From a virus, in UHGV virus genome UHGV-0332176: DNA of 64,000 nt; one strand, written 5' to 3'. Positions 4,313 to 64,000 of the stretch are shown here, in pieces. Position 1 is the stretch's first letter. Each line of letters starts with the position of its first letter. The translations under genes and the position numbers were made by a program. Under the pieces are notes generated by a model. It was not told the origin of the DNA, ran no database searches, and saw nothing but the letters and a program-made list of their open reading frames with translations.

Positions 4313-4984
4313 ATGTCATTTTTTAATTTAACTAAAATAAAATCAATAACAAAATTAAATAAAATATATAGATTACTTAGTAAAACATATCATCCTGACA
4401 ATAAAGAAACAGGTGATAAAGATAAATTTATTGAGTTAAAAGAAGAATATGATAATGCAAAAAAAGTAATTTCTTCTTCACCAACACCAATTTTAATCAA
4501 TATTTCAACTTCAAAAGCATTCACAGGCTGTGAAGTTAATTATAATAATTGTGGCGATTCTGCCATAATTAAAATTCCTGCTAAATTTTATGATACTATG
4601 GATAGTGCCCTTATTTGTGATAATAATGGAAAATCATATATTGTATCCGTTAAGATAAAACCAGAAAAAGATGAAGCAATTACTTATTCACGAAATGGTG
4701 ATATAATTATTACCAAATATATTGAAATTACACCATTTGATTTAATTGGAAATAATGTTATATCATTTAATTTATTTAATGAAGAAAAACAAATTTTATT
4801 AACAAATAAATTAATAAAAAATATTCAACAACCACTAACATTATTAAATATCGGATACCCTTTGAAAAAAAATAGAAAAAAACGTGGAATTGTTAGAATA
4901 AGATTTAAAATTAAACCTTTATCTATTAAAGATGAAGATAAAAAATTATTAAAAGTTATTGAGGAAAAATATAAATGCCAGTAG
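4313..4984 (+). CDS. J-domain (DnaJ-like) co-chaperone
   Basis: YRLLSKTYHPDNKETGDKDKFIELKEEYDN matches the J-domain helix II/III with its invariant HPD tripeptide. Confidence 0.65.
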   Translation: MSFFNLTKIKSITKLNKIYRLLSKTYHPDNKETGDKDKFIELKEEYDNAKKVISSSPTPILINISTSKAFTGCEVNYNNCGDSAIIKIPAKFYDTMDSALICDNNGKSYIVSVKIKPEKDEAITYSRNGDIIITKYIEITPFDLIGNNVISFNLFNEEKQILLTNKLIKNIQQPLTLLNIGYPLKKNRKKRGIVRIRFKIKPLSIKDEDKKLLKVIEEKYKCQ

Positions 4985-22076: not shown

Positions 22077-23330
22077 ATGAAAACTTATTTAGTTGGTGGA
22101 GCAGTTAGAGATAAATTACTTGGAAAAGAACCACACGATAAAGATTATGTTGTAGTGGGTTCAACTATTGAAGAAATGCTATCACTTGGTTTTACACAAG
22201 TTGGTAAAGATTTTCCTGTATTCCTTCATCCTAAAACAGGGGAAGAATATGCTCTTGCTCGTACTGAACGTAAAACAGGTAGTAAACATACTGATTTTTC
22301 ATTTGAATTTTCTTCTAATATAACTCTTGAAGAAGATTTAATAAGACGTGATTTTACAATTAATGCAATGGCAATGAATATGGAAACAGGTGAAATCATT
22401 GATTATTTTAATGGAAAACAAGATTTAGAAAATAAAATCCTGCGTGCAGTAAGACCTGAAACTTTTATTGAAGACCCTCTTAGAGTATTGCGTGGATGTC
22501 GTTTTGCTGCTCAATTAGATTTTTCTATTGCTCCTGAAACAATGGAATTATTTAAACAAATGGTTTTAGATGGTATGCTAGAACATTTAACTGCAGAAAG
22601 AGTTTGGAAAGAAACTGAAAAAGCATTAGCAATAGTTTATCAATCTGAAAAATATTTTGAAAATTTAAGAAAATGTGGAGCATTAAAACTTTTAATGCCT
22701 GAAGTTAATAGATTATTTGATACTCCCGAACAACTTAAATATCATCCATCGGGAAATTCAGGTAAACATACAATGATTGCATTAACACGAGTTCAAAATG
22801 AAAATTCTTTAACAAAATTCATTGTATTATGTCACGATTTTGGTAAAGGTGTCACACCTGCTGATATTTTGCCAAAACATAGTGGACACGATGAAAGAGG
22901 GTTAGCTGAAATTGATGCTTTTTGTGATAGATTAAAAGTTCCTAATAATTATCGTGAAAATGCAAAAACATTTTGTAAAAATCATATGCGTATGGCTCGT
23001 TTTCCTGAAATGAATGTTAAAAAGCAATATGATATGATTAAAGAACTTTCTAATAATTTTAAAAATATTGAAACTTTACAAATGTTTATTGAAGGTTTTT
23101 ATGCTGATTGGACAGGTGAAAATGAACAAACAGCGTGGAATGATACAAAAGAAGCTGATGATATTACATATGTAATGAAAAAAATTTTTAATATTATGTA
23201 TGGTATTACTTTAAAAGATTTACCAGAAAAAACACAAGAAGATTTAAGTAAACAAAAAGGTGAAAAATTTGGTAAACTTTATCGTGATGCAATGATAAGT
23301 TATTTAAAATTTAATTTGAAAAATTCTTAA
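22077..23330 (+). CDS. cca: tRNA nucleotidyltransferase (CCA-adding enzyme) with an HD domain
   Basis: The N-terminal YLVGGAVRDKLLGKEPHDKDYVVVGS is the class II nucleotidyltransferase head motif. A downstream HD-like motif is present (LCHDFGKG). At 417 aa it is similar to bacterial CCA enzymes. Confidence 0.75.
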   Translation: MKTYLVGGAVRDKLLGKEPHDKDYVVVGSTIEEMLSLGFTQVGKDFPVFLHPKTGEEYALARTERKTGSKHTDFSFEFSSNITLEEDLIRRDFTINAMAMNMETGEIIDYFNGKQDLENKILRAVRPETFIEDPLRVLRGCRFAAQLDFSIAPETMELFKQMVLDGMLEHLTAERVWKETEKALAIVYQSEKYFENLRKCGALKLLMPEVNRLFDTPEQLKYHPSGNSGKHTMIALTRVQNENSLTKFIVLCHDFGKGVTPADILPKHSGHDERGLAEIDAFCDRLKVPNNYRENAKTFCKNHMRMARFPEMNVKKQYDMIKELSNNFKNIETLQMFIEGFYADWTGENEQTAWNDTKEADDITYVMKKIFNIMYGITLKDLPEKTQEDLSKQKGEKFGKLYRDAMISYLKFNLKNS

Positions 23331-23367: not shown

Positions 23368-23904
23368 TTGGGTTTCTTACAAGAATTTAACTTGCTTTTT
23401 AAGGAGATAAAAATGACTAAAAATAATTTAGTATCATTATTTGATGATATTTTTGATAATAAAAATTCTTTTATTGGTTTTAACGAACTTTTTAACGATT
23501 TATCTAAATTTGATTTAAATCTTACAGAACGTGGTATTAAAGATTCTTTTCCACCATATAATGTTTATACAAAAGATGTTGATGTTTCTGGTAAAGATGA
23601 ACCAGAAATGTTATTAACTCATACTTTTATTGAAGTTGCTTGTGCAGGATTTAGAAAAGAAGAACTTTCAATAAAATTTGATGAAGACAGTTCAATTTTA
23701 ACTGTTGAAGGAAATGCTAAACATAAACCAGATATTGAAGATGTAAAATATTCTTATAAAGGTATTGCAACAAGATTATTTCAACGCCAATGGAAATTAT
23801 CTGGAAAATTAAAATTTGTTAAAGCATCTTATGAAGATGGAATTTTAAAAATGGAATTTGAACCACGAATGGAAGATAAAGTTACATCACTTCCGATTGA
23901 ATAA
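23368..23904 (+). CDS. small heat-shock protein (Hsp20/alpha-crystallin family)
   Basis: LTVEGNAKHK..YKGIATRLFQRQWKLSGKLKFVKASYEDGILKMEF matches the alpha-crystallin domain. Confidence 0.65.
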   Translation: MGFLQEFNLLFKEIKMTKNNLVSLFDDIFDNKNSFIGFNELFNDLSKFDLNLTERGIKDSFPPYNVYTKDVDVSGKDEPEMLLTHTFIEVACAGFRKEELSIKFDEDSSILTVEGNAKHKPDIEDVKYSYKGIATRLFQRQWKLSGKLKFVKASYEDGILKMEFEPRMEDKVTSLPIE

Positions 23905-36865: not shown

Positions 36866-38152
36866 ATGGCTAATGAAAATGCAACTAAAATTCAATTAAG
36901 ACACGATTCATCTGCAAATTGGTTTGCTAATAATCCAATTTTAGCTGAAGGTGAAGTTGGTATTGAAATTGATAAAAATAGAATGAAAGTTGGTAATGGT
37001 GTAAGTCATTACAATGATTTAGAATATTTTTCTGATACTGTTGATTATAATGAATTAATTAATAAACCACAAATTAATAGTATCGGTTTGATGGGTAACT
37101 TATCTTTACACGAATTAGGTATTCAAGCAGAAGGCGATTATGCAACTGTATTAACTTTAACAGAAGGTTTATCAGAAAAAGCTGATAAAGCTGATACTTA
37201 TACTAAAACTGAAATTGATACTGAATTTTCTTCACTTATTAAAGTTCCAGCTATTGATGGACACGATGGAGAATGGTTAACTAATAAAGATGGAGTAGTT
37301 AAATGGGAAAATCTTGGTGATTCAGTTGTTACTAATGAAGAATTAACAACTGCATTAGAACCATATGCTTTAAAAACTAATATACCTACAAAAAATTCTC
37401 AATTAGAAAATGATTCTGACTTTGTAACTTTAACTGAATTAGCAGAATCTGATTATGTAACAAATACAAATTTAACAACTAAATTAGGTGAATATGTTAC
37501 TAATACTGCATTAGCTGAAGAAGGATATGCAAAAAATAGTGAATTAGCTCAAGTTGCAAAATCAGGTTCATATAATGATTTAACAAATAAACCAACTATT
37601 CCAACTGTTCCTGAAAATATTACAACTCAAGGAAATACTTTTAACGGAGCTAATCAATTAGTAAAATTAGAAGCTGATGGTAAATTACCAGCATTAGATG
37701 GAAGTAAATTAACTGGAATAAGTTCTGGAACATCTGATTATTCTGTATTATCTAATAAGCCACAAATTAATTCAGTTGAATTATCAGGTAATAAAACATT
37801 AGACCAATTAGGAATTCAAGCTAAAGGAGATTTTGCAGTTAAATCAACTACATTATCTGGATATGGTATTACAGATGCATATACAAAGACTGAATCTGAT
37901 AATAAATATGCAACTCAAACTTCTTTGAATTCTTATTTAACAACTGCATCAGCTTCTACAACTTATGCTACTAAAACAGAATTAGTAGATAAAGCTGATG
38001 TTGAAGATATTCCACAAGGAAATCAATTAATGGCTGGACAAGCTCCTACTGTTGCCGATATTAGTGCAGAAACAGTTACAGATATTCCAGGTTTAATTAG
38101 TGCAATTAATGCAATTTTAGCTCAATTAAGAACACGTAATGTTATTGAATAA
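36866..38152 (+). CDS. tail fibre protein (repeat-containing; paralog of 38170..38925)
   Basis: Repeats YTKTEIDTEF, LSEKADKADTYTKTE and SNKPQINSVELSGNKTLDQLGIQAKG. The C-terminus LAQLRTRNVIE is shared with 38170. Confidence 0.6.
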   Translation: MANENATKIQLRHDSSANWFANNPILAEGEVGIEIDKNRMKVGNGVSHYNDLEYFSDTVDYNELINKPQINSIGLMGNLSLHELGIQAEGDYATVLTLTEGLSEKADKADTYTKTEIDTEFSSLIKVPAIDGHDGEWLTNKDGVVKWENLGDSVVTNEELTTALEPYALKTNIPTKNSQLENDSDFVTLTELAESDYVTNTNLTTKLGEYVTNTALAEEGYAKNSELAQVAKSGSYNDLTNKPTIPTVPENITTQGNTFNGANQLVKLEADGKLPALDGSKLTGISSGTSDYSVLSNKPQINSVELSGNKTLDQLGIQAKGDFAVKSTTLSGYGITDAYTKTESDNKYATQTSLNSYLTTASASTTYATKTELVDKADVEDIPQGNQLMAGQAPTVADISAETVTDIPGLISAINAILAQLRTRNVIE

Positions 38153-38169: not shown

Positions 38170-38925
38170 ATGACAGAAAGAATTGATATTAAATATGTAT
38201 TAAAAGATACAAAAGCAAATTGGACAAGTTTTAATCCAATTTTATCAAAAGGTATTATGGCTTATGAAACTGATACAAATTTAATTAAATTATTTGATGG
38301 TGTTTCTGATTATAATTCATTAGCATATATTGGTGGAACAGGTGGTTCATCTACACCAACTGATTATGCATCTTTATCTAATAAACCACAAATTAATTCA
38401 GTTGAATTATCAGGTAATAAAACATTAGACCAATTAGGAATTCAAGCTAAAGGTAATTATTTGGTTTCATCTGATTTAAATAATTATGCTTTGAAATCTG
38501 AATTACCTACAAATACAAGTGATTTAACAAATGATTCTGGATTTTTAACATCTATTCCTTCAGAATATGTTACTGAAACAGAATTAAATAGCAGTTTAGA
38601 AGATAAAGCTGATACTGCAACAACTTTATCTGGATATGGTATTACAGATGCATATACAAAAACTGAAGCTGATGGTAAATATGCAACAAAAACTGAATTA
38701 TCTAATAAAGCTGATACAAGTGCATTATCTAATTATGCAACTACATCTGCTTTAACAGAAGGATTAGCAGAAAAAGCCGATACAAGTGCATTACCTGCTT
38801 CAACTTCTTTAATGAATGGAACTGCTCCTTCTGTTGCTGATTTTGCAGGAGCTGATGCAGAAGGATTAAAAACAGAATTAAATGCATTTTTAGCCCAACT
38901 TAAAACTCGTGGTGTAATTGCATAA
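38170..38925 (+). CDS. tail fibre protein (paralog of 36866..38152)
   Basis: Shares a 77-bp near-identical DNA block (38377-38453 versus 37751-37827) and the C-terminus LAQLKTRGVIA. Confidence 0.6.
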   Translation: MTERIDIKYVLKDTKANWTSFNPILSKGIMAYETDTNLIKLFDGVSDYNSLAYIGGTGGSSTPTDYASLSNKPQINSVELSGNKTLDQLGIQAKGNYLVSSDLNNYALKSELPTNTSDLTNDSGFLTSIPSEYVTETELNSSLEDKADTATTLSGYGITDAYTKTEADGKYATKTELSNKADTSALSNYATTSALTEGLAEKADTSALPASTSLMNGTAPSVADFAGADAEGLKTELNAFLAQLKTRGVIA

Positions 38926-54253: not shown

Positions 54254-54280
54254 AAAAATAAAAAAAATTAAAAAAAGTTC

Positions 54281-54309
54281 TTGACAAGTAAAATTATTTA
54301 TATTATATA
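54281..54309 (+). promoter_or_regulatory. early promoter (aaaaaGTTCTTGACA family)
   Basis: aaaaaagttcTTGACAagtaaaattatttatatTATATA. Confidence 0.55.
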
Positions 54310-54562: not shown

Positions 54563-54589
54563 AAAGTTATTAAAGGAAAAAAGTTTAAA

Positions 54590-54670
54590 ATGATACACAG
54601 TAATGTGGAAAATAATAGAGATTATCAAATGTTTGCGATTAAACCTGCAAGCAAAAGGGCTTATATGTAA
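54590..54670 (+). CDS. possible 26-aa microprotein between promoter 54534 and terminator 54701
   Basis: MIHSNVENNRDYQMFAIKPASKRAYM. Weak RBS (aaagga). Confidence 0.25.
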   Translation: MIHSNVENNRDYQMFAIKPASKRAYM

Positions 54671-54700
54671 CTATACATAGATATAAAAATAGATACAAAA

Positions 54701-54740
54701 TAAGCTCTAAAAAGAAAATCTTTAGAGCTTTTTCTTTTTA
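54701..54740 (+). terminator. rho-independent terminator
   Basis: aagctctaaaaagaaaatctttagagctttttcttttt. Confidence 0.7.
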
Positions 54741-54763
54741 ATAAAAATAAATTAAAAAAGTTC

Positions 54764-54792
54764 TTGACATTAAAAAATAAATGATGTATAAG
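54764..54792 (+). promoter_or_regulatory. early promoter
   Basis: aaaaaagttcTTGACAttaaaaaataaatgatgTATAAG. Confidence 0.55.
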
Positions 54793-54860
54793 AACAAATA
54801 TTGAAAGAAATTGAAAACATAAGTTGAAAAAAATCTTTCAAAAATATTTAAAAAAAGTTC

Positions 54861-54889
54861 TTGACAAACAAAATTAAATAGTTTATAAA
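54861..54889 (+). promoter_or_regulatory. early promoter
   Basis: aaaaaagttcTTGACAaacaaaattaaatagttTATAAA. Confidence 0.55.
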
Positions 54890-54896
54890 GAACACA

Positions 54897-55380
54897 TAAG
54901 AACGAAAGTTCTTGTTATAAAAGAAAAAATGGAGACCTTGCTCCTTGATAAACTTTAAATAATCTAAATCACCAAGGGATAACCTGACGACCATATAGTG
55001 TAACAGCGGATATGGAGAACGGTTTGAGAGAGATAGCAAAAACCTCTCAATTTATATAAATTGTTAATATCTGAAAAGATGAGAACTTTGTTGTATAACG
55101 ATGGCAGTATCGGAGACTGGAAAAATGCTTCGGATTAACAATTTATATAAATTATTCAATTAAAAGAAAAATATTAAATATATCCGTGAAATACCTCCTT
55201 TTTATGTTTCCGAAAATTAAAAACATTGATTGAATAATTTAAATTATGTCTCGACTCTTGAAAGATAGAATATCGGGGCGACAATTTGAAATATAATTGT
55301 CCGTTATGGGTGATGTTGGAAAGGTTAGCGAATCCCGAATCATACGAAAATGATAAAATAAGAAAACCTTTCAATATTTA
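54897..55380 (+). ncRNA. candidate non-coding transcript(s) downstream of promoter 54861, leading into the tRNA cluster
   Basis: No plausible ORF. It contains hairpins and two copies of the 16-bp palindrome caatttatataaattg (55048-55063 and 55139-55153). Confidence 0.25.
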
Positions 55381-55382
55381 AT

Positions 55383-55469
55383 GGGCAGGCTGCGAAGTTG
55401 GAGAGTCGCCTTTGACTGTAAATCAAATCCCTTCGGGGTGAGTGTGTTCGAATCACACCCTGCCCACCA
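55383..55469 (+). tRNA. tRNA-Tyr (anticodon GTA), type II with a long variable arm
   Basis: Acceptor gggcagg/cctgccc, D arm gcga..tcgc, anticodon stem tttga/tcaaa with loop ctGTAaa, variable hairpin, T arm gtgtg ttcgaat cacac, ends ACCA. Confidence 0.8.
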
Positions 55470-55602
55470 TTTAAAATATATTATTTAATTAGTTAATTTG
55501 ATGAAATATATATTTAGTTAATATATAAAATAATCTATGAAAGAAGTGAAAATTCTTTCATATTATTTAACTAATAAACTTTAACTAATTAAATAATATA
55601 TT

Positions 55603-55679
55603 GGACATATAGCTCAGTCCAGTAGAGCACCAGACTGAAAATCTGGGTGTCGGTGGAGCGAAGCCACCTGTGTCCACCA
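55603..55679 (+). tRNA. tRNA-Phe (GAA)
   Basis: Acceptor ggacata/tgtgtcc (one G-U pair), anticodon stem ccaga/tctgg with loop ctGAAaa. The T loop is unusual (agcgaag). Ends CCA. Confidence 0.65.
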
Positions 55680-55820
55680 ATTTTAAAAATATGGAACTCA
55701 TAAAAGTAATATTATTAGTATGCTATTAGCGATATAGACGAAAGTGAAAATAATATGAAATGAACGGAGTTTAAATTCCATAGACTATATTCGAAAAGAT
55801 AGGTATAGTCATTTATAAAT

Positions 55821-55897
55821 GGGCCAGTAGTTCAGCTGGGAGAACGCCTGCTTTGCACGCAGGATGTCGTGGGTTCAAGCCCCACCTGTGTCCACCA
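55821..55897 (+). tRNA. tRNA-Ala (TGC), possibly defective (acceptor stem mismatched)
   Basis: The body matches tRNA-Ala (gttcagctgggagaac, cctgc tttgcac gcagg, gtggg ttcaagc cccac). The 3' strand ctgtgtcc does not pair with the 5' strand gggccag (ctggccc would be expected). The last 21 nt are identical to the 3' end of the tRNA-Phe gene. Confidence 0.45.
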
Positions 55898-55904
55898 ATT
55901 TTAT

Positions 55905-55980
55905 TCCTCGTTAGCTCAATGGTTAGAGCAATCGGCTGTTAACCGATAGGTTTGGGGTTCGAGTCCCTAACGGGGAGCCA
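55905..55980 (+). tRNA. tRNA-Asn (GTT)
   Basis: Acceptor tcctcgt/acgggga, D arm gctc aatggtta gagc, anticodon stem atcgg/ccgat with loop ctGTTaa, T arm tgggg ttcgagt cccta, ends GCCA. Confidence 0.8.
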
Positions 55981-56301
55981 CTTTTTAATAAAAGTTTTGT
56001 ATGAAAACTAGTGAGTAATACAAAAAGTTTAACCCAACTGTACTTCAACAGGGTTCTTACAGAAGAAATAATCTGTCGTAGGATAGAAAATGTCTATGTT
56101 ATGGAAGTGTACACCAAAGTTTTGGCGTTTGAGTGGTAGTTACCAAATAAAACTATAAACTACCATATTTACAGTTTTTAGCTTAACATTATGTTAAGTA
56201 TTACAGAAAAAGTCTTTTGGGTCTCTACCAAAAGCGTTGAACTGGACGGCTATGGGCAGATGGTTCTTATGTAGAATACGATAAATTCTACAATTTTATA
56301 T

Positions 56302-56380
56302 CGGGTAGTCGCCTAATCTGGTATGGCACTTGCTTTGGGAGCAAGAAAAATTGGCGGTTCAAATCCGTCCTACCCGACCA
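56302..56380 (+). tRNA. tRNA-Pro (TGG)
   Basis: Acceptor cgggtag/ctacccg, anticodon stem cttgc/gcaag with loop ttTGGga, T arm ggcgg ttcaaat ccgtc, ends ACCA. Confidence 0.75.
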
Positions 56381-56429
56381 TATATTTAATAAATACTTGT
56401 ATAAATAACAAGTTAAGGATTATTAAGTC

Positions 56430-57011
56430 GTGATTAATAGATTTGAAAAGATAGAAAATGAAAAATTTATAGAAATATTTAATACTTCTGAAAGTAAAGG
56501 TGAAATTTGTCGTAAATTAAATATGCATAATAATGGTAAATCTATGAAATATATTAATGCAATGATTAAAGAACTTGGTTTGAATATAAATATTTTTAAA
56601 GAAAATCATTTCAATAAATATCATATAAAAAAGATTTGCCCTGTATGTGGTAAAGAATTTATTACAACAACAACGGAAAAAGGTAAGAATAAGGTATGTT
56701 GCTCATATTCGTGTGCTAATACTTATTTTCGTAGTGGTGAAAATAATGGAATGTATAAAAATTCTAATCTTTCAGGAAGAAATTCTTATTCAACTATTTG
56801 TTTTAGACATCATCCTCATAAGTGTTGTATATGTGGCGAAGAAAATATAGTTGCTGTTCATCATTATGATGGTAATCATAATAATAATGATATAAGTAAT
56901 TTAATTCCTTTATGTCCAACACATCATTGTTATATACATTCACGATTCAAAAATAAAATACAAGATAAAGTTGATGAATATAGAAATAATTTTATAAAAT
57001 CAAATAGTTAA
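56430..57011 (+). CDS. HNH homing endonuclease with an N-terminal zinc-finger DNA-binding module (GTG start)
   Basis: CPVCGKEF..CCSYSCANTY (zinc finger, homologous to the N-terminus of 59708) and CCICGEENIVAVHHYDGNHNNNDISNLIPLCPTHHCYIH (HNH motif). It lies inside the tRNA cluster. Confidence 0.65.
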   Translation: MINRFEKIENEKFIEIFNTSESKGEICRKLNMHNNGKSMKYINAMIKELGLNINIFKENHFNKYHIKKICPVCGKEFITTTTEKGKNKVCCSYSCANTYFRSGENNGMYKNSNLSGRNSYSTICFRHHPHKCCICGEENIVAVHHYDGNHNNNDISNLIPLCPTHHCYIHSRFKNKIQDKVDEYRNNFIKSNS

Positions 57012-57285
57012 TAATTTTTCTAAATGGTGCTGAATTACCACAAGTACTTATTTCAGTTAAATGTAGTTGCAAAAAATATGGTCGCTCCATAAGAACTCAA
57101 GCCATTTAAACTTTGGGTTAATGCATACCAATAGTCCAAAGCATTCGAAGTCAGCCGCTTCGTAAAATAGGAGTATAGTTTTTTGAATATTTTGACTAGA
57201 CTATAAATATTCTCCATCTATGGAAGAAATAGTCGTGGATATTGACTAACCCGAAGTATTACGAGAAGATACTTCAAATTTTAAT

Positions 57286-57361
57286 GGTTCGGTGACAGAA
57301 CGATTAATGTACTCGCCTGCAAAGCGATGTTTAGTGGGTTTGACTCCCACCCGAATCTCCA
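57286..57361 (+). tRNA. possible tRNA-Cys (GCA) with a non-canonical D and T loop
   Basis: Acceptor ggttcgg/ccgaatc, anticodon loop ctGCAaa, T arm gtggg tttgact cccac, ends TCCA. It lacks the G18G19 and T54-psi55-C56 consensus, so it may be a pseudo-tRNA. Confidence 0.3.
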
Positions 57362-57531
57362 ATTTATTTTTTAAGAATGGTGAGAAATTGATTTACATAG
57401 ACTGGAAATCCGTGTGTAGAAAGTTCGATTCTTTCCCCATCGACCATTTAACGGTGGGTAGCTCATTGGTAGAGCAACGTTAAATGATAATCAATTGTTA
57501 TGTTCCTTCTTAATTTTTTATAAAAAAGTTC

Positions 57532-57560
57532 TTGACATTAAAAAATTATGTGTTATATTA
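57532..57560 (+). promoter_or_regulatory. early promoter (aaaaaGTTCTTGACA family) driving 57606..57839
   Basis: aaaaagttcTTGACAttaaaaaattatgtgtTATATT. Confidence 0.55.
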
Positions 57561-57605
57561 CCATTATCAAATGATGATAACATTTTTTAATGAAAGAAAA
57601 ATAAA

Positions 57606-57839
57606 ATGGCAAATACAAATTCAAATTTAGAATTAGGTAAAATTGAAAACAAATGTGGATTTCATATTCATATGGTTCTTTTTGGTGTTAAAAGTGATAT
57701 TATTCGTTATGATATTACTCTTGAAGAAGCTAAAGATTTAATTAATAAAGCTAAAAAAGAATGCGAAAGAGCAGGAATGGAATTCCAATTAATTGAATTT
57801 GAGGAAGTCAAAGTTTCCGTAAAGAAACTTAAATTTTAA
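57606..57839 (+). CDS. hypothetical small protein (promoter-ORF-terminator cassette inside the tRNA cluster)
   Basis: 77 aa with its own promoter and a downstream hairpin (57854-57892). Confidence 0.5.
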   Translation: MANTNSNLELGKIENKCGFHIHMVLFGVKSDIIRYDITLEEAKDLINKAKKECERAGMEFQLIEFEEVKVSVKKLKF

Positions 57840-57853
57840 AAGTTTTGGTAGTT

Positions 57854-57892
57854 GGAAGTTAAGCTATTAGGGCAGGAGCAACTTAACTTCCA
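57854..57892 (+). terminator. hairpin (putative terminator)
   Basis: ggaagttaagc..gcaacttaacttcc. Confidence 0.45.
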
Positions 57893-58432
57893 TCTATTGA
57901 TACGAATCCTGATTTATTAATTACCTTCACGTGGTTCAGGATGTAAGTAAGAATTGCAGTTTATAACATAAGACAATTTCTGAAACTAAAAATTAATTTT
58001 TAAAATGATTTAATTGAATTATAGTAAATTAAATAAGTTGATTAAATACGTGAGCAATATAGAATCAACAATTGGTATAAAAGCAGATTATAACCGAACT
58101 ACTTAGGCTTACGGTAGACGTAGGGTATAACCACGATTAGGGCAATTTATTTTGAATCTTCATTATGAGTCCTCAACAAATATAATCGTTTTTAAAAAAT
58201 TCTGCATATTTAAATTTTTAAAATTATCTTTATGATGTCTTTCGTTCCTTTCATTGTTGTTACATAAAGATAATTTTGGAGAGATTAATCTCTCCACTTA
58301 TAGAAACATTAAAGATGTCAGTTCGAATCTGACCTGCCTGAATAAAAACTTTTAATATTAAATTGATATTAAAAGTCGGGTGGTAGTAATAACGGTAGAA
58401 TAGTAATGTTGCTATAAATGGAGAATTTTTAT

Positions 58433-58507
58433 GGGTGTATAAGTCAACGGTTAGACTAACAGCCTTTTAAGCTGTAGATGAGGGTTCGATTCCCTCTGCA
58501 CCTACCA
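58433..58507 (+). tRNA. tRNA-Lys (TTT)
   Basis: Acceptor gggtgta/tgcacct, D arm agtc aacggtta gact, anticodon stem acagc/gctgt with loop ctTTTaa, T arm gaggg ttcgatt ccctc, ends ACCA. Confidence 0.8.
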
Positions 58508-58535
58508 ATTTATATTATTGTAGTTAAATACTTTA

Positions 58536-58607
58536 ATGTATCGTCTAATGGCAAGACACCCTCTGTTCGTGTTGAGGGAAATATAGGTTCGAATCCTAAT
58601 AATCATT
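58536..58607 (+). ncRNA. tRNA-like element with a canonical T arm (ggttcgaatcc) but a 10-nt loop on the ccctc/gaggg stem and no CCA
   Basis: gtctaatggcaagac (D-arm-like), then ccctc tgttcgtgtt gaggg, then aataggttcgaatcctaat. It cannot be folded as a standard tRNA by eye. Confidence 0.2.
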
Positions 58608-58873
58608 AAAAATATATAAGAAAAATAACAAGTTTCTTTTTTGATAATTTGGTATTGGAAATTAATGCCCAATTATGACAAGTATTTAACAAAATTTCCT
58701 GACTCTAATCAAAGAATTAGTGATTGATAATTTAATAATTATCTGTGTGCGTGATATGACACCCTTTATCAACGCTTGCATACAAGACTGCATAAATCAA
58801 GATGGGTAGGTGGCTGTTTATCCGTTTCACCTTTCAAATGATAAACAAAACGTTAAAACGGATTGCATTTTAT

Positions 58874-58948
58874 TCTGGTGTAGCTCAATGGTGGAGCAAT
58901 CGGCTGTTAACCGAAAGGTTGTAGGTTCAAGTCCTATCGCCAGAGCCA
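58874..58948 (+). tRNA. tRNA-Asn (GTT), second copy
   Basis: Acceptor tctggtg/cgccaga, anticodon loop ctGTTaa, T arm gtagg ttcaagt cctat, ends GCCA. Confidence 0.8.
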
Positions 58949-59179
58949 ATTATAATAGTAATCATAATATTTAATTTAATAGGATTTTGGTAGCTAGATA
59001 ACCCAAGATATGAAAATTAATATTGATGATATGGTTTAAGATTTTGACCATTAACCGTAATGAAAATCCAGTTTATTTATTGTACTCGGTTAACAATAAC
59101 GTAGAATTGGTAATTCTTAGAAAGGTACGTTAAGCCTTTTATTAAATAAATATCTTATATAATTTATGAGGTATTAAAG

Positions 59180-59602
59180 ATGAGATTAATAGACATATTA
59201 GCATTATTTAAAGCTATTAAAAATACTGCTAAAAAATATCATTGGAAAACAACAGGTTCAACTTTTATGTCAGACCATTTATTATTTGATAGAATTTATG
59301 ATGATATTGATGATGACCAAGTTGATACAATTGTTGAACAATATTATATGGGTGTTGGAAGAAAAGATATTAATGATTTAGATAATTTAATTACATTATC
59401 TGCACAATATGAAGGTAAATCATTTTCTGCAACTTCTGAAAGTATAATTTTAATGTATCAAGAATTAGCAAGAATGATGAATACATTTTTAATTAATATT
59501 GAAAAATTAAATTTATTAAGAGGTATTAATTCTGAATTAGATAATCTTTCTTCAACTATTACACAATTATATGGTTTAGTAACTGCAAGATTATGTCAAT
59601 AA
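59180..59602 (+). CDS. Dps/ferritin-like protein
   Basis: ALFKAIKNTAKKYHWKTTGSTFMSDHLLFDRIYDDIDDDQVDTIVEQY matches the Dps signature (L..L....Y.KTHN.HWNV.G..F..LH..FEE.Y......D.iAERi). Confidence 0.4.
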   Translation: MRLIDILALFKAIKNTAKKYHWKTTGSTFMSDHLLFDRIYDDIDDDQVDTIVEQYYMGVGRKDINDLDNLITLSAQYEGKSFSATSESIILMYQELARMMNTFLINIEKLNLLRGINSELDNLSSTITQLYGLVTARLCQ

Positions 59603-59604
59603 TT

Positions 59605-59682
59605 GGGGCTGTGGGCGAATTGGTAGAGCCACCACCCTTTCAAGGTGGATTCTTGCCCGTTCAAGTCGGGTCAGTCCTACCA
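59605..59682 (+). tRNA. tRNA-Glu (TTC)
   Basis: Acceptor ggggctg/cagtcct (two G-U pairs), anticodon stem ccacc/ggtgg with loop ctTTCaa, T arm gcccg ttcaagt cgggt, ends ACCA. Confidence 0.65.
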
Positions 59683-59707
59683 TTTTTTATTAAGAAAGAA
59701 ATAAAAA

Positions 59708-60423
59708 ATGTATATATGTAAGAATTGTGGTAAAGAATTTTTAGAAAAATATAGCAAATGGTCAAATGGAGATTTTTGTTGTAAAGAATGTGCTAGAAGT
59801 TATTCAACAAAAAATAAAAGACAAGAAATTAATGAAAAAGTTTCTAAAACATTAAAAGGAAGAATTATTGGAAAAAATTCTTTATTAAAAAATATTAATA
59901 TTAAGCAACAATATGAAAAAGCTCCTTTATTATGTCCAATATGTAACAATATAATTTTATATGAAAGATATATTAAACATAGAAAAACTTGTAGTACAGA
60001 ATGTGGTAAAGAATTAGCAAAAAGAAATCATTCTCATCAAGGTGGTGGTTATAGAAAAAGAGCAGGAAGAAGTAAGCACGGATATTACAAAGGAATTTAT
60101 TGTGATTCAACTTATGAGTTAGCTTATTTAATTTATTGTTTAGACCATAATATTAATATTAAAAGATGTGAAGAAACATTTGAATATGAATATAATGGAA
60201 AAAACATAAATATCATCCTGATTTTATTGTTAATGATGAAATTATAGAGATAAAAGGTTATCATAATAATTTGGTCGATATTAAAATGAAATCTATTATA
60301 AATAGAAAATATAAAATATTATATATTAATGATTTATTTAAATCATTTGAATATGTTAGTAAAGCATATAATAAAAAATTTCATAATAAATGGAATAATT
60401 TTTATGAATTATATGATGAATAA
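59708..60423 (+). pseudogene. PD-(D/E)xK-type homing endonuclease with an N-terminal zinc-finger module, interrupted by a -1 frameshift at A_AAA_AAC (60199-60205)
   Basis: Frame 0 (59708..60247) carries CKNCGKEF..CCKECARSY and CPICNN..CSTECGKEL zinc ribbons plus GIYCDSTYELAYL. The -1 frame is open from 60196 and reads KKHKYHPDFIVNDEIIEIKGYHNN.. (PD...EIK nuclease motif) through to 60423. Confidence 0.45.
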
Positions 60424-60424
60424 T

Positions 60425-60504
60425 GGTGTGTGGGAGAGCTGGGTGTTCTCGCCTGCCTGTCACGCAGGAGATTCAGAAGGGTTCGAACCCCTTACACACC
60501 GCCA
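60425..60504 (+). tRNA. tRNA-Asp (GTC)
   Basis: Acceptor ggtgtgt/acacacc, D arm gaga gctgggtgt tctc, anticodon stem cctgc/gcagg with loop ctGTCac, T arm aaggg ttcgaac ccctt, ends GCCA. The variable region is slightly long. Confidence 0.6.
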
Positions 60505-60709
60505 ATTTTTTGAGATATATGCCTAGCAGTTTTCGGTAAAAAATCAAGAAAACAAATGCCTGTATGGTTAAGACATATATCTATCGTCTGTGGAAAATAA
60601 TAGTCCGTAAGGTTCTGTAATACAAGATATTATAGGTTAAATGTTCAGCTATCGAACGGAGAATAGCCAAACCAGCAAATAAGGTGGAAAGCCTTATATT
60701 AATTGTTAT

Positions 60710-60785
60710 GGGTGTGTAGCTTAAATGGTAGAGAAACTGACTCTTAATCAGTATGATGAGGGTTCGAAGCCCTCTGCACCCACCA
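60710..60785 (+). tRNA. tRNA-Lys (CTT)
   Basis: Acceptor gggtgtg/tgcaccc, anticodon stem actga/tcagt with loop ctCTTaa, T arm gaggg ttcgaag ccctc, ends ACCA. Confidence 0.75.
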
Positions 60786-60798
60786 AAAAAATAATTAT

Positions 60799-60874
60799 GC
60801 ACCCATAGGCTAATTGGACAAACCCAAAGTCTTCTAAACTTTTATTACAGGTTCGAGTCCTGTTGGGTGTGCCA
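60799..60874 (+). tRNA. tRNA-Arg (TCT)
   Basis: Acceptor gcaccca/tgggtgt, anticodon stem aaagt/acttt with loop ctTCTaa, T arm cagg ttcgagt cctg, ends GCCA. Confidence 0.8.
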
Positions 60875-61115
60875 GTTATAATTTTATTAAATAATTTGCC
60901 AGCAGGGAAAAGTGAAATGACGCTTCCACCCACTTATTAGGGTTAGATATAGCATCCTTTGCCGTGATGTTTAGTCAGCATCCTTGAAGTTTCATATTGA
61001 GGAAACTTGACATCGTGAAGGAAAGGTTAAACGTCAGACCATAAATAATGGAACAGTTTGTAAAAGAGCCTTTTAAACTGTGGAATAAGTGGCAAATTAT
61101 TTAATAAAATTTTTA

Positions 61116-61247
61116 TGATGAAACGGTGTGGCGGTGTACATATCTGAAAGTAATAGACCTGGTCTTTTAATTTGAAAGTGAAAATTAAACAAAGGTATTA
61201 CCGTTAGAGGAAGTAAGAAGTCAATGGTTCAACTCCATTTTTCATCA
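61116..61247 (+). ncRNA. 132-nt tRNA-like RNA (candidate stable RNA analogous to T4 RNA C/D species)
   Basis: Perfect 8-bp closing stem tgatgaaa/tttcatca and a canonical T arm atgg ttcaact ccat immediately before the 3' strand. The body (~100 nt) is far too long for a tRNA and there is no ORF. Confidence 0.35.
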
Positions 61248-61252
61248 TTTAT

Positions 61253-61328
61253 GCTCGGTTAGTTCAGCTGGAAGAACATCGCTTTTACACAGCGAGGGTC
61301 GGGAGTTCAAACCTCTCACCGAGTACCA
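61253..61328 (+). tRNA. tRNA-Val (TAC)
   Basis: Acceptor gctcggt/accgagt, D arm gttc agctggaa gaac, anticodon stem tcgct/agcga with loop ttTACac, T arm gggag ttcaaac ctctc, ends ACCA. Confidence 0.8.
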
Positions 61329-61330
61329 AT

Positions 61331-61404
61331 TTCGGGGTCGTCTAGTGGTAGGACATTGCACTTTGACTGCAATAACGTTGGTTCGAATCCAGCTCCCGAA
61401 GCCA
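61331..61404 (+). tRNA. tRNA-Gln (TTG)
   Basis: Acceptor ttcgggg/tcccgaa, anticodon stem ttgca/tgcaa with loop ctTTGac, T arm gttgg ttcgaat ccagc, ends GCCA. Confidence 0.8.
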
Positions 61405-61683
61405 ATTTTTAACTTGGGTTTTAACATTTTTATCCCTTTTCCGAAAAAGAAAATGTTAATAGTTGTAATTACAACTCGTTGAGGAATACTATCGTGAAAA
61501 AGTATTGGTTTATTGATTGTTTTTTATATGCTTTGGAACTCCCAGAGACCTGAAATCAATAAGGTATAATAAAGCATCTTAATTTAATAATGGGTAAGAT
61601 TGTAGAATCTCTGATATTAAATTTTAAAGTTTTATTCGTGAATACGGAAACAATGTTAAGTACGTTAATCTTAACAATTTTAT

Positions 61684-61775
61684 GGTGAGTTGGTAGAGTC
61701 AGGTTTAATACAGCAGTTTGCTAAACTGTCGCTTCCGAAAGGTTGCCAGAGGTTCAAATCCTCTACTCACCGCCA
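61684..61775 (+). tRNA. tRNA-Ser (GCT), type II
   Basis: Acceptor ggtgagt/actcacc, anticodon stem gcagt/actgt with loop ttGCTaa, a ~17-nt variable arm, T arm agagg ttcaaat cctct, ends GCCA. Confidence 0.75.
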
Positions 61776-61814
61776 TTAAAAATTAAAAAAATAAAAAAAG
61801 TTCTTGACAATTAA

Positions 61815-61843
61815 GAATTTAAAGAATATATTCTTTATATAAG
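61815..61843 (+). promoter_or_regulatory. early promoter (aaaaaGTTCTTGACA family)
   Basis: aaaaaaagttcTTGACAattaagaatttaaagaaTATATT. Confidence 0.55.
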
Positions 61844-61849
61844 GTGCTG

Positions 61850-62005
61850 ATATGCCTTAAATCAAAATTATCAGTCCGAGTTTAAAGTTTGGGGTGAGAT
61901 AAACTTTGGTTTAAAGTAATCCAGAAACTTTGGTTTCAATATTTCGCATTAAAATATTGCGTTGGACTGATTATCCCAAAACCATTACGATAAGATGGTT
62001 TATTT
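61850..62005 (+). ncRNA. candidate small RNA or leader with triple aaactttgg(t) repeats, upstream of tRNA-Ile
   Basis: gtttaaagtttggggtgagataaactttggtttaaagtaatccagaaactttggtttcaa. No ORF. Confidence 0.25.
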
Positions 62006-62008
62006 AAT

Positions 62009-62085
62009 AGGCTCGTGGTGGAAGTGGTTAACACGTTGCTCTGATAAAGCAAAGATTCCCAGTTCGATTCTGGGCGAGCCTACCA
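62009..62085 (+). tRNA. tRNA-Ile (GAT)
   Basis: Acceptor aggctcg/cgagcct, anticodon stem ttgct/agcaa with loop ctGATaa, T arm cccag ttcgatt ctggg, ends ACCA. Confidence 0.75.
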
Positions 62086-62119
62086 AATTTAAAATAATTT
62101 ATTTGTGGGAGTATTATAA

Positions 62120-62332
62120 ATGCCAATGGAAAAGAAAGTTTTAACTGATGCAGAAAAAGAATTAAAAAAGAAAGAACACGAATTTAATAAGAAAATTAAT
62201 CAAGTTTGGAAGTTAAGACCATATAAAATTAATGGAATTTCTAAAAATGTTGGTAAAGCTCCAAAATGCAATACAAAAGTTAAAACTGAAAAACCAGTAG
62301 AAATGGTAAATCAGAAAAAGAAAAAGAGATAA
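62120..62332 (+). CDS. small lysine-rich basic protein
   Basis: 70 aa with an RBS (gggag). Confidence 0.45.
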   Translation: MPMEKKVLTDAEKELKKKEHEFNKKINQVWKLRPYKINGISKNVGKAPKCNTKVKTEKPVEMVNQKKKKR

Positions 62333-62340
62333 AAATAAAT

Positions 62341-62416
62341 GCTCCGATAGGCTATGTGGTTAAACCAGGGAGCTTATATCTCTCAATGCACGGTTCGAGT
62401 CCGTGTCGGAGTACCA
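62341..62416 (+). tRNA. tRNA with anticodon TAT (AUA-decoding Ile-like)
   Basis: Acceptor gctccga/tcggagt, anticodon stem gggag/ctctc with loop ctTATat, T arm cacgg ttcgagt ccgtg, ends ACCA. The D-arm pairing is ambiguous by eye. Confidence 0.55.
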
Positions 62417-62422
62417 TATTTT

Positions 62423-62498
62423 TCTCCGATAGCTAAACGGTTAAAGCTGTCCGCTCATAACGGAAAGATTGGGGGTTCGATTCCCTCTCGGAGAACCA
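62423..62498 (+). tRNA. tRNA-Met (CAT) or tRNA-Ile2 (CAT modified to LAU)
   Basis: Acceptor tctccga/tcggaga, anticodon loop ctCATaa, T arm ggggg ttcgatt ccctc, ends ACCA. Confidence 0.7.
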
Positions 62499-62808
62499 TT
62501 TTTATAAAAGTTTTGGTTCAGACAATACGCACAAGGTGAAGATAGCACAACGGTGATGAACCATTGATATAAAAAGAATGATTTAGCGGTCATAAACTAT
62601 TATATTATAAAAGTGTCTGATGACTTTAGTTCTTTTCAATAAGGAAAAGAGTTGCAACAACCATTAATTTAAATGTTTGCTAACAAGTTCATTTAAATTA
62701 AGTATGGTAATAATGTTAGAGGAAAAATTTATTGATTTGACTATGTTAAAATCAATCGGTGAATTTTAATAATTCTCATAAATCATCTGTTAAGTGATTA
62801 TTATATAT

Positions 62809-62883
62809 AGCGGGATAGAGCAGGGGTAGCTCACTTGGCTCATAACCAAGAGGTCGGGTGTTCGAGTCACTCTCCCGCAACCA
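62809..62883 (+). tRNA. initiator-like tRNA-fMet (CAT)
   Basis: Strong similarity to bacterial initiator tRNA: 1-72 mismatch (A1/A72), agcggga..tcccgca acceptor, gagc aggggta gctc, anticodon stem cttgg/ccaag with loop ctCATaa, ends AACCA. Confidence 0.7.
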
Positions 62884-62993
62884 TTTAATAGGTAGGTACG
62901 AAGATAGCTCAAATACCTCGTAAAACTAAATAGTCGTGCTATCCGCAAACTTTTGTAGAGTAAATGGCGATATAAGTAACTCTACATTTTAAT

Positions 62994-63069
62994 GGCAGAT
63001 TAGTGAAATGGTTTATCACGGCTGACTCATATTCAGCAATTACAAGTTCAATTCTTGTATCTGCTACCA
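62994..63069 (+). tRNA. tRNA (CAT): Met elongator or Ile2
   Basis: Acceptor ggcagat/atctgct, D arm gtga aatggttta tcac, anticodon stem gctga/tcagc with loop ctCATat, T arm acaag ttcaatt cttgt, ends ACCA. Confidence 0.75.
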
Positions 63070-63094
63070 ATAATTTTTTTGTGGGAAATAATCA

Positions 63095-64000
63095 ATGACA
63101 AATTATATTGTAAATAATAATAATGTTAGAATATTTGGTGATGAAGAAGTTAATATTCAACCAAATTTGCCATTAGGTACATATTTAGTAAAAGAAAATC
63201 CTATGTCTGGTGAATTATATTTAGAAAAAACAGTCAATTTTACAAAGCCAACAAAAATTTATGGAGATTGTGAATTTCAATCTGAAAGAATTATTACAAC
63301 ATTTAAAGATAGACCAAAGAATACAGGTGTATTATTAAATGGTGCAAAAGGGTCAGGAAAAACATTTTTAGCAAAATATATTTCTTATAAGTTGTTAAAT
63401 GAAAATTATTCAACAATTGTTATTAATGAAATTTTTAATCCAACAAAATTGTCATTATTATTACAAACAATTTCTGAACCTTGTGTAATTATTTTTGATG
63501 AATTTGAAAAAATTTATCAACCAAGTAAAAATGATAATAATAATCCTCAAAATGGTTTATTATCATTATTAGATGGTTTATTTCAAACAAAAAAATTATT
63601 TATTTTTACTTGTAATGATGATAATAATATTTCTGATTTAATGAAAAATAGACCAGGTCGTGTTTATTATAAATTAGAATTTAAAGGTATTAACGATAAA
63701 GCTATTGAAGAATACTGTGAAGAAAAATTAATTAATAAAAAATATCTTTCACAAATTTTTAGTATCAAAAAAATGATTAAAGATTTTACATTTGATATTC
63801 TTCAAACAATCGTAGAAGAAGTTAACAGATATAATGAAACTCCATTGGATGCTGTTAAAATGTTAAATGTTACTCCACAATCATTATATACAAGATATAG
63901 TATTTCTGTTAAACCTTTACAAGGTCAAAAAATTATTAATTATGAAAAAACAATATGGATGAATCCTTTATCTTCAGATGAAGAATCAGTTTGGATTAAA
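63095..64000 (+). CDS. AAA+ ATPase (partial; continues past the window end)
   Basis: ATG at 63095 with an RBS (gggaaa). Walker A GAKGSGKTFLAKY and Walker B VIIFDEFEK. There is no stop within the window. Confidence 0.65.
   Translation, partial: MTNYIVNNNNVRIFGDEEVNIQPNLPLGTYLVKENPMSGELYLEKTVNFTKPTKIYGDCEFQSERIITTFKDRPKNTGVLLNGAKGSGKTFLAKYISYKLLNENYSTIVINEIFNPTKLSLLLQTISEPCVIIFDEFEKIYQPSKNDNNNPQNGLLSLLDGLFQTKKLFIFTCNDDNNISDLMKNRPGRVYYKLEFKGINDKAIEEYCEEKLINKKYLSQIFSIKKMIKDFTFDILQTIVEEVNRYNETPLDAVKMLNVTPQSLYTRYSISVKPLQGQKIINYEKTIWMNPLSSDEESVWIK

Follow-up and report, generated by a model that had tools for sequence, protein, structure and literature searches.

A stretch of 64,000 nucleotides (nt) from the viral genome UHGV-0332176, hereafter the window, carries at positions 55383–63069 a cluster of 20 bacterial-type tRNA genes identified by ARAGORN and Rfam, all on the plus strand. 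So many such genes on one strand within 7.7 kb cannot be the product of chance. The region is very probably a block of tRNA genes that supplement the translation of an A/U-rich phage, with a Y-like RNA embedded at 57370–57520. The cluster is the first of two RNA-gene clusters in an AT-rich gut jumbo phage with a genome of about 284–289 kb. As a tRNA cluster it is ordinary for large phages, and its unusual content is limited to an AUA codon predicted to be doubly covered and the embedded Y-like RNA. The original prediction had placed about 20 tRNA genes here, in an AT-rich phage, and both the number and the setting are borne out: the window has a GC content of 25.8% and a high coding density under code 11.

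No close relative was found among GenBank phages, the top protein identity being 44%. IMG/VR has relatives on contigs of 217–287 kb: L001 and L002 encode an 80% identical ATPase and carry a syntenic tRNA cluster. Contigs of 204–289 kb in ENA hold proteins identical to those of window open reading frames (ORFs), and one ENA contig, L239, is 99.3% identical to window positions 54587–64000.

The set of 20 tRNA genes

ARAGORN reports 19 of the tRNA genes, and the Rfam tRNA model RF00005 (gathering score, 29 bits) supplies the twentieth through a match at 57286–57358 (47.5 bits). Rfam recovers 19 of the 20, with scores of 37.9–70.6 bits and E-values of 3e-5 to 3e-14; tRNA-Tyr, which is of type II, is the sole gene found by ARAGORN only. 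Together, the genes serve 15 amino acids and include an initiator-like tRNA. The cluster opens with tRNA-Tyr(GUA) (55383–55469), which has a fully paired acceptor stem (7/7) and A73-CCA. It is followed by tRNA-Phe(GAA) (55603–55679), tRNA-Ala(UGC) (55821–55897), a first tRNA-Asn(GUU) (55905–55980), and tRNA-Pro(UGG) (56302–56380), all called by ARAGORN and scoring 59.2, 53.4, 67.6, and 56.5 bits, respectively, in Rfam. The gene supplied by Rfam is tRNA-Cys(GCA) (57286–57361), with atypical D- and T-loops and U73-CCA, which ARAGORN detects at a relaxed threshold.

Called by both programs are also tRNA-Lys(UUU) (58433–58507; 70.6 bits), a second tRNA-Asn(GUU) (58874–58948; 65.8 bits) that is missing from this site in L001, tRNA-Glu(UUC) (59605–59682; 50.9 bits), and tRNA-Asp(GUC) (60425–60504; 37.9 bits), which has a long variable region. 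Beyond these lie tRNA-Lys(CUU) (60710–60785; 58.8 bits), tRNA-Arg(UCU) (60799–60874; 55.2 bits), tRNA-Val(UAC) (61253–61328; 60.9 bits), tRNA-Gln(UUG) (61331–61404; 60.3 bits), the type II tRNA-Ser(GCU) (61684–61775; 54.8 bits), and tRNA-Ile(GAU) (62009–62085; 64.9 bits). The remaining four genes, one with a UAU and three with CAU anticodons, are treated below. All anticodons listed in the original prediction, including the duplicated Asn and Lys species, were reproduced, and a Cys assignment that it had offered with a question mark is confirmed by the anticodon, the discriminator, and the Rfam score.

The individual genes are well formed. Where a 3' CCA had been expected in nearly all of them, it is templated after the discriminator in 20/20. 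Discriminators follow bacterial identity rules, with U73 in tRNA-Cys and G73 in the Asn, Asp, Gln, and Ser species; inspection of the acceptor stems showed that C1–G72 with A73 in tRNA-Pro and U1–A72 in tRNA-Gln match these rules likewise. All 20 combine a 7-bp acceptor stem, an isotype-appropriate discriminator, and the 3' CCA, with tRNA-Ala, which the ARAGORN fold puts out of register, doing so by way of one bulge: a single bulged U in its 3' acceptor strand gives seven pairs, including G3–U70, followed by A73 and CCA at 55895–55897. This bulged acceptor is kept in L001 and L002. The tRNA genes stand out from the window in composition, at 38–62% GC. Their order is conserved in the relatives with the 80% identical ATPase, and the stems show compensatory changes, two of them pair changes in tRNA-Cys relative to L001. 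On these structural and comparative grounds the 20 are shown to be real genes, expected to work as bacterial-type tRNAs.

The last 16 nt of tRNA-Ala, including its flank (TGTGTCCACCAATTTT), are the same as in tRNA-Phe. The possibility that this gene is a chimera of tRNA-Phe and tRNA-Ala whose acceptor stem is broken was considered and rejected, since the single bulged U restores the register and the relatives keep the sequence.

Codon usage and the predicted decoding of AUA

Near the end of the cluster, the gene at 62341–62416 encodes a tRNA with a UAU anticodon, presumed to be an isoleucine tRNA reading AUA (ARAGORN; Rfam, 44.4 bits). The original prediction had flagged that its loop might fold differently; ARAGORN and the Rfam alignment agree in placing UAU at positions 34–36 of the 7-nt loop CUUAUAU. 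The tRNA has A73, C4–G69, C5–G68, CCA, and intact stems. With respect to isoleucine identity, A73 and C4–G69 are present, but positions 12 and 23 form a C×A mismatch and position 38 is U. The gene is exactly conserved in 14/14 near-identical strain loci. In L001 and L002, a UAU tRNA occupies the same site without the CAU gene that follows it in the window, and its acceptor stem and D arm resemble that neighbouring CAU gene.

This neighbour, a CAU tRNA at 62423–62498, lies 6 nt from the UAU gene, shares acceptor positions 2–7 with it, and is exactly conserved in 13/14 strain loci. The ARAGORN and Rfam alignments give it C4–G69, C5–G68, A73, U12–A23, C29–G41, A37, and A38. Work by Ikeuchi and colleagues in 2005 is said to have identified C4–G69 and C5–G68 in CAU tRNA as determinants for E. 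coli TilS, and Nureki and colleagues reportedly defined, in 1994, the identity set of E. coli isoleucyl-tRNA synthetase (IleRS) as A73, U12–A23, C29–G41, A37, and A38. The gene is thus predicted to be Ile2-like, of the lysidine type. A homology search with it returned generic D-arm and T-arm matches to many isotypes and gave no classification. A second CAU tRNA, at 62994–63069, is 89% identical to its L001 orthologue and has G2–C71, C3–G70, A4–U69, and G5–C68; it looks like an elongator Met tRNA. The two elongator-type CAU tRNAs of the original prediction are not equivalent, the suggested check for TilS determinants having found them in 62423.

Because the UAU tRNA and the Ile2-like CAU tRNA are both present, AUA would be covered twice. 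The two routes would make different demands on the host: the UAU tRNA would require no lysidine but a permissive host IleRS, and the Ile2-type CAU tRNA would require host TilS. Tomikawa 2018, as cited in PMC10688831, describes both CAU and UAU species of tRNA-Ile in Lactobacillus plantarum, and Mycoplasma mobile has a tRNA-Ile(UAU) (PMC3575796). Overall, UAU-anticodon tRNAs are rare in bacteria and need a permissive IleRS (PMC3575796), in agreement with the original prediction. Among phages the UAU tRNA is not unique to this one: a tRNA-Ile(UAU) also occurs in the comparable tRNA cluster of Lak-B2, a published megaphage.

The third CAU tRNA, at 62809–62883, is initiator-like. It carries the expected mismatch in the form of A1×A72, with no Watson–Crick pair at 1:72, together with G2–C71, C3–G70, G4–C69, and A11–U24. 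With the tandem tRNA-Met genes that adjoin amiC in E. coli (the metZWV locus) it shares 73.7% identity, and the metZWV-type match falls at a median of four places per E. coli genome, as expected of initiator genes. Homologues occur in 213 phage records, and an initiator fMet tRNA is annotated in phage T5, so the notion that a phage-encoded initiator tRNA is uncommon is not upheld. The orthologue in L001 (8921–8995) has a U1–A72 pair and ends in AACA with no templated CCA, a difference from the A1×A72 and CCA of the window copy.

Turning to the codons that these tRNAs would serve, the 62 ORFs use, per 1000 codons, AAA 85 times, AAT 81, GAA 69, ATT 66, TTA 64, GAT 63, and ATA 21, with AUA making up 23% of Ile codons. 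The 20 tRNAs read 66% of codons under standard wobble and 73% under four-way U34 wobble. The multiplied isoacceptors (Lys, Asn, and Ile) match the three commonest amino acids, and the set follows a design of one tRNA per codon box, with U34 or G34. From codon usage, the tRNA set, and synteny, we infer that the cluster supplements decoding. Repeated sigma-70-like promoters would drive transcription rightward, the tRNAs would be excised by RNase P and exonucleases of the host, and host synthetases would charge them. The phage tRNAs would then top up the decoders needed for an extreme A/U-ending codon usage, and late translation would thereby become less dependent on the host tRNA pool.

Several points weigh against this reading. 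Lys(CUU) serves a codon, AAG, that is seldom used (6 per 1000), and no window tRNA reads UUA, the fifth commonest codon, so that frequency matching is imperfect; the original view of a set favouring A/U-ending codons is right about the codon usage, and gives way to a one-per-box set where the tRNAs are concerned. The codon usage figures describe the phage side only. In the anticodon stem of the initiator-like tRNA (U29–A41, G30–C40, G31–C39), only two of the three canonical initiator G–C pairs are present, as is also the case in its L001 orthologue. Finally, UAU tRNA is a poor substrate for E. coli IleRS, and on E. coli ribosomes a UAU anticodon that lacks modification misreads AUG (PMC3575796); whether the UAU tRNA is useful therefore hinges on host properties.

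Three alternatives bear on this. Counter-defence could be the main driver, with the phage tRNAs replacing host tRNAs cut by anticodon nucleases or tRNA-targeting immunity. We regard this as a tentative possibility, on the unlikely side, and one that is compatible with codon supply. The Lys, Asn, Tyr, Asp, Glu, Gln, Arg, and initiator tRNAs belong to classes known as nuclease targets, and the duplicated species in the cluster (Lys and Asn), along with several others, fall among these classes. Lys(CUU) is retained despite the rarity of AAG, and the same genome encodes a CCA-adding-enzyme-like protein and a Ro60 protein, the latter linked to tRNA-mimicking Y-like RNAs. Phage tRNAs can evade tRNA-targeting defences (PMC10264068, PMC11555353). 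Set against this, the set spans nearly every codon box instead of a few targeted species, and the anticodon loops of the real tRNAs are canonical with no unusual substitutions seen.

A second alternative concerns the UAU tRNA, which might not decode AUA as isoleucine at all: it could remain uncharged, could accept a different amino acid, or could be a duplicate of the adjacent CAU gene that is in decay. Its Rfam score is the lowest in its subgroup, its D stem contains the C12×A23 mismatch, the inefficient charging by E. coli IleRS noted above would apply to it, and the Ile2-like gene 6 nt downstream could suffice alone. This seems improbable to us given its invariance across the strain loci, its retention in L001 and L002 where the Ile2-like gene is lacking, its counterpart in Lak-B2, and its intact stems with A73, C4–G69, and CCA. 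A third, barely credible alternative is that the cluster is mostly inert cargo, consisting of tRNA pseudogenes that hitchhike with homing endonucleases. Endonuclease genes are indeed gained and lost between strains, and there are at least two tRNA-derived remnants, at 58534–58609 and about 58313–58336; yet every one of the 20 genes has an intact cloverleaf, a correct discriminator, and CCA, and both compensatory substitutions and a conserved order are seen across relatives. Supplementation of decoding remains the reading that we prefer.

A Y-RNA-like element and its linkage to Ro60

The element at 57370–57520 (plus strand) appears to be a YrlA-like RNA of a new variant, with an architecture and, through its paralogues, a genomic linkage that fit YrlA-type Y RNAs. 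The assignment draws on a sub-threshold Rfam match, covariation, and a TROVE (Ro60) gene beside its paralogues. The Rfam YrlA model (RF02553) gives a full-length match at 57394–57507 with 40.7 bits (E = 2e-6), short of the gathering score of 69. The outer helix UUAAGAA/UUCUUAA is followed by the internal loop UGGUGAG / GUUAUGUUCC, and then by an 8-bp helix A, AAUUGAUU/AAUCAAUU, and UACAUAG. The head is tRNA-like in circularly permuted order: a small hairpin with the loop CUGGAAA, a T arm, an acceptor-like hairpin, U8-A9, and a D arm. Within it, the 7-bp acceptor-like hairpin has a templated A-CCA (CCCAUCG-A-CCA-UUUAA-CGGUGGG). The module order of YrlA, namely T arm, acceptor-like hairpin, and D arm on a 5'/3' stem with an internal loop, is thus present. 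In M. smegmatis YrlA, RNase P cleaves in the 7-bp acceptor-like stem (PMC4201824). The motif GNCGAAN0-1G found near the 5' end of YrlA (PMC4201824) is absent here: the 5' loop is UGGUGAG in this copy, UAGUGAN in the paralogues, and AAGCGGUA, UAGCGGUA, and AUGCGGUA in the copies of a further contig, L003.

Compared with its L001 paralogue, the element shows compensatory changes, on both sides, at 10 of its 27 pairs, with pairing kept in 99% of cells. When relatives were searched with a covariance model based on the window and L001 copies of the scaffold, it found further copies in L001, L002, L003, and L237–L240, including one in L003 with G-CCA after the 7-bp stem. The scaffold is seen in 11 distinct copies, with a different outer helix in each, and amounts to at least seven copies per genome. 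Its heads are of three kinds: a permuted tRNA-like fold, a normal-order cloverleaf lacking CCA, or a bare hairpin, of which the cloverleaf heads are miscalled as tRNAs by ARAGORN. Scanning IMG/VR with three DNA patterns of the scaffold, the first with the wrong spacing, returned only chance matches or ordinary tRNAs.

Genes for TROVE proteins were located in L239 (16909–18198), L001 (13684–14970), and L003 (11123–12799), and in L003, L001, and the strain loci L237–L251 the TROVE gene adjoins arrays of the scaffold RNA that share its strand. The closest solved structure to the phage TROVE protein is the Ro60 of Thermus phage phiLo (9KOP/9L5Y). A Pfam scan of 38 window ORFs found no TROVE domain. 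YrlA-type RNAs are expected within about 4 kb of a Ro60/TROVE gene on the same strand. In L239, taken as a 99.3% identical proxy, about 8.7 kb separate the 57370 copy from the TROVE gene downstream, which lies about 2 kb past the window end and has six paralogues of the RNA 0.1–1.3 kb upstream on the same strand.

We also considered whether 57370–57520 is a true circularly permuted tRNA gene of the red-alga type, in which a bulge-helix-bulge motif and a circular intermediate lead to a contiguous mature tRNA that has an anticodon arm. The order is permuted, in that the T arm and acceptor 3' strand precede the acceptor 5' strand and D arm. The candidate was nevertheless rejected, as its leader-trailer helix is a plain one of 8–9 bp that lacks bulge-helix-bulge geometry, and a continuous anticodon arm is missing, with none joined to the D arm. 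No phage precedent for circularly permuted tRNA genes was found in the literature.

One family member bears on a possible role in conflict with the host. At L239 15745–15856, about 1.8 kb past the window end, lies a 112-nt Y-like RNA with a normal-order cloverleaf head lacking CCA. Across 12 strains, which diverge in the background by 0.1–4.8 per 100 nt, this copy varies only at positions 32, 34, and 36, in its 7-nt anticodon-like loop. The triplet is GUU in eight strains, GUA in three, and UUU in one, and ARAGORN names the RNA tRNA-Asn or tRNA-Lys according to strain. The triplets GUU, UUU, and GUA are anticodons of tRNA classes cut by known anticodon nucleases. With no more than two or three mutational events behind it, the pattern hints at selection acting on the anticodon-like loop but does not prove it. 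It is conceivable, though we think it unlikely, that the tRNA cluster forms half of a phage RNA-conflict module, in which Ro60 would work with at least seven Y-like RNAs built on the UAGUGAG-loop scaffold; the heads of these RNAs, among them the permuted mimic with templated CCA inside the cluster and complete cloverleaves with anticodon loops, could then act as decoys, sensors, or Ro60 adaptors against host enzymes that attack anticodon loops.

Neighbouring features and comparison with known systems

Several protein-coding genes are interspersed with the tRNA genes, all on the plus strand. An HNH homing-endonuclease gene (193 amino acids (aa); 56430–57011; phrog_1271, E = 3e-11) lies between tRNA genes and is missing in L001, as is a small ORF of 77 aa at 57606–57839. 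A homing-endonuclease-like gene at 59708–60424, encoding 238 aa in relatives, carries a frameshift near 60198, where a run of A residues is one short; the frameshift falls at an A6/A7 run and occurs likewise in the L248 copy. Homing-endonuclease genes vary by strain among L237–L251, and some strains have additional ORFs, 316, 140 (PDDEXK_5), and 54 aa long. A 140-aa ORF at 59180–59602 is Dps-like or DNA-binding-like (phrog_3636, E = 2e-10); it is found unchanged in 973 indexed assembly blocks, and the phage is by this measure common. The names of the records may be codes of human-gut cohorts. A 70-aa ORF at 62120–62332 has an identical protein in 773 assembly blocks.

Two strong sigma-70-like promoters lie inside the cluster on the plus strand, each with 11/12 consensus positions. 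The first (57532–57559) combines TTGACA, a 16-nt spacer, TATATT, and a TG extension, and the second (61804–61832) combines TTGACA, a 17-nt spacer, and TATATT. A promoter-like repeat, AAAAAGTTCTTGACA, with TATATT downstream, occurs at 57521–57546, 61781–61818, and 54257–54307, and is also present in L001.

Other RNA elements accompany the tRNA genes. Just upstream of tRNA-Val lies a conserved structured RNA of about 135 nt (61116–61249, plus strand) that lacks CCA and whose 9-bp terminal stem stacks on a T arm. Its identity to L001 is 95%, versus 72% in the surrounding DNA, and both the T stem and an inner helix show compensatory changes relative to L001. The RNA is similar to the tRNA-like stable RNAs of T5. 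A degenerate tRNA-like element follows tRNA-Lys(UUU) at 58534–58609 (plus strand), with a sub-gathering Rfam score of 26.5 bits, an acceptor broken by a 2-nt deletion in one strand, a 10-nt loop, and no CCA. Its orthologue in L001 (4268–4333; 54.7 bits) folds into a good cloverleaf, with a short closed hairpin replacing the anticodon arm and hence no anticodon loop, and without CCA. The T-arm fragment at 58313–58336 is probably a tRNA remnant. Its T arm and CCTGCCT resemble the 3' end of tRNA-Tyr, and a complementary GGGCAGG lies about 450 nt upstream (57873–57879); no interrupted tRNA around GGGCAGG (57873) and CCTGCCT (58328) was found by ARAGORN with introns of up to 900 nt.

The cluster is bounded on the right by an AAA ATPase gene (63095–64000, plus strand; phrog_2376, E = 1e-84), which is cut by the window end, is syntenic in L001 and L237–L251, and divides the tRNA cluster from the second RNA-gene cluster. 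Beyond it, tRNA genes continue with Ser(UGA), Thr(UGU), His, and Leu(UAG). Elsewhere, the window encodes phage structural proteins, SSB, a RecA-like protein, a DNA methylase, chaperones, and a CCA-adding-enzyme-like nucleotidyltransferase. The latter (22077–23330, plus strand) has a Pfam PolyA_pol head domain (E = 8e-26) and an RNA-binding domain, and coexists with tRNA genes that all template CCA. Chaperone genes of DnaJ-like, ClpB-like (762 aa), and HSP20-like types lie at 4313–7263 and 23368–23904; a host search by way of the ClpB-like gene gave only 30–42% identity to unrelated phyla and indicated no host. An Mtd_N (major tropism determinant) domain is N-terminal in two neighbouring ORFs, at 36866–38152 and 38170–38925, which are possibly a target of a diversity-generating retroelement. 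Stop-codon recoding of the kind seen in Lak phages was rejected: ORFs are contiguous under code 11 and TGA is merely a rare stop (TAA 54, TAG 7, TGA 1 in window ORFs).

Taken as a whole, the cluster is one more well-resolved case of a known class, a phage with a near-complete decoder set of its own. With AUA apparently covered by both known routes, it offers a natural system in which to ask if the UAU tRNAs of phages can function in the absence of lysidine. More useful is the link of a phage Ro60 gene to Y-like RNAs that mimic tRNAs and form a family of many copies. Experiments on the biology of phage Ro60 have become possible only recently (PMC12135203), and the present lineage provides numerous natural RNA partners, differing in their tRNA-like heads, for probing the role of Ro60 in infection.

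Among known systems, the closest in layout is T5 (NC_005859, about 28–41 kb region), in which some 25 tRNAs share one region with HNH genes, small ORFs, and promoters. Part of that region is annotated as "tRNA-like stable RNAs with unknown functions", and the window cluster also has tRNA-like RNAs. Both phages carry three CAU species (initiator fMet, elongator Met, and Ile2 in T5) alongside Ile(GAU). T5 differs in lacking a UAU tRNA, whereas the window would cover AUA by UAU and CAU; it is also a 122-kb phage, in contrast to the window phage of about 288 kb, with its 25.8% GC and linked Ro60 gene. Lak-B2 (MK250021), a Prevotella phage, is likewise an AT-rich gut phage with a long tRNA array, and shares Ile(UAU), Ile(GAU), Lys(UUU), Lys(CUU), Arg(UCU), and two CAU tRNAs with the window. 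Its tRNAs are the best DNA matches to the cluster among GenBank phages, at 72–80% identity, with the similarity confined to tRNA genes (4% of the query). Unlike Lak phages, which recode stop codons, the window shows no sign of recoding. The covariance model found no convincing copies of the Y-like scaffold in T5 or Lak-B2. L. plantarum resembles the window in combining a UAU tRNA with a lysidine-type CAU tRNA, the window pair being phage-encoded and adjacent.

For the Y-like RNA, the nearest counterparts are the YrlAs of M. smegmatis and mycobacteriophage (PMC4201824), which have the same module order as the 57370 element; the 7-bp acceptor-like stem of the latter matches that of M. smegmatis YrlA. 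In place of the GNCGAA(N)G / CGAA motif of the YrlAs, the window family has UAGUGAG (UGGUGAG in the 57370 copy). Its CCA is templated in the loop and not added, and the copies, at least seven in number, have varied heads, some of them apparently a normal-order cloverleaf with an anticodon loop. The 57370 copy, moreover, lies inside a tRNA cluster at a distance of kilobases from the Ro60 gene. Its paralogues lie directly upstream of the TROVE gene; in Thermus phage phiLo, a further counterpart, Ro60 is accompanied by Yrl1 and Yrl2 (PMC12135203).

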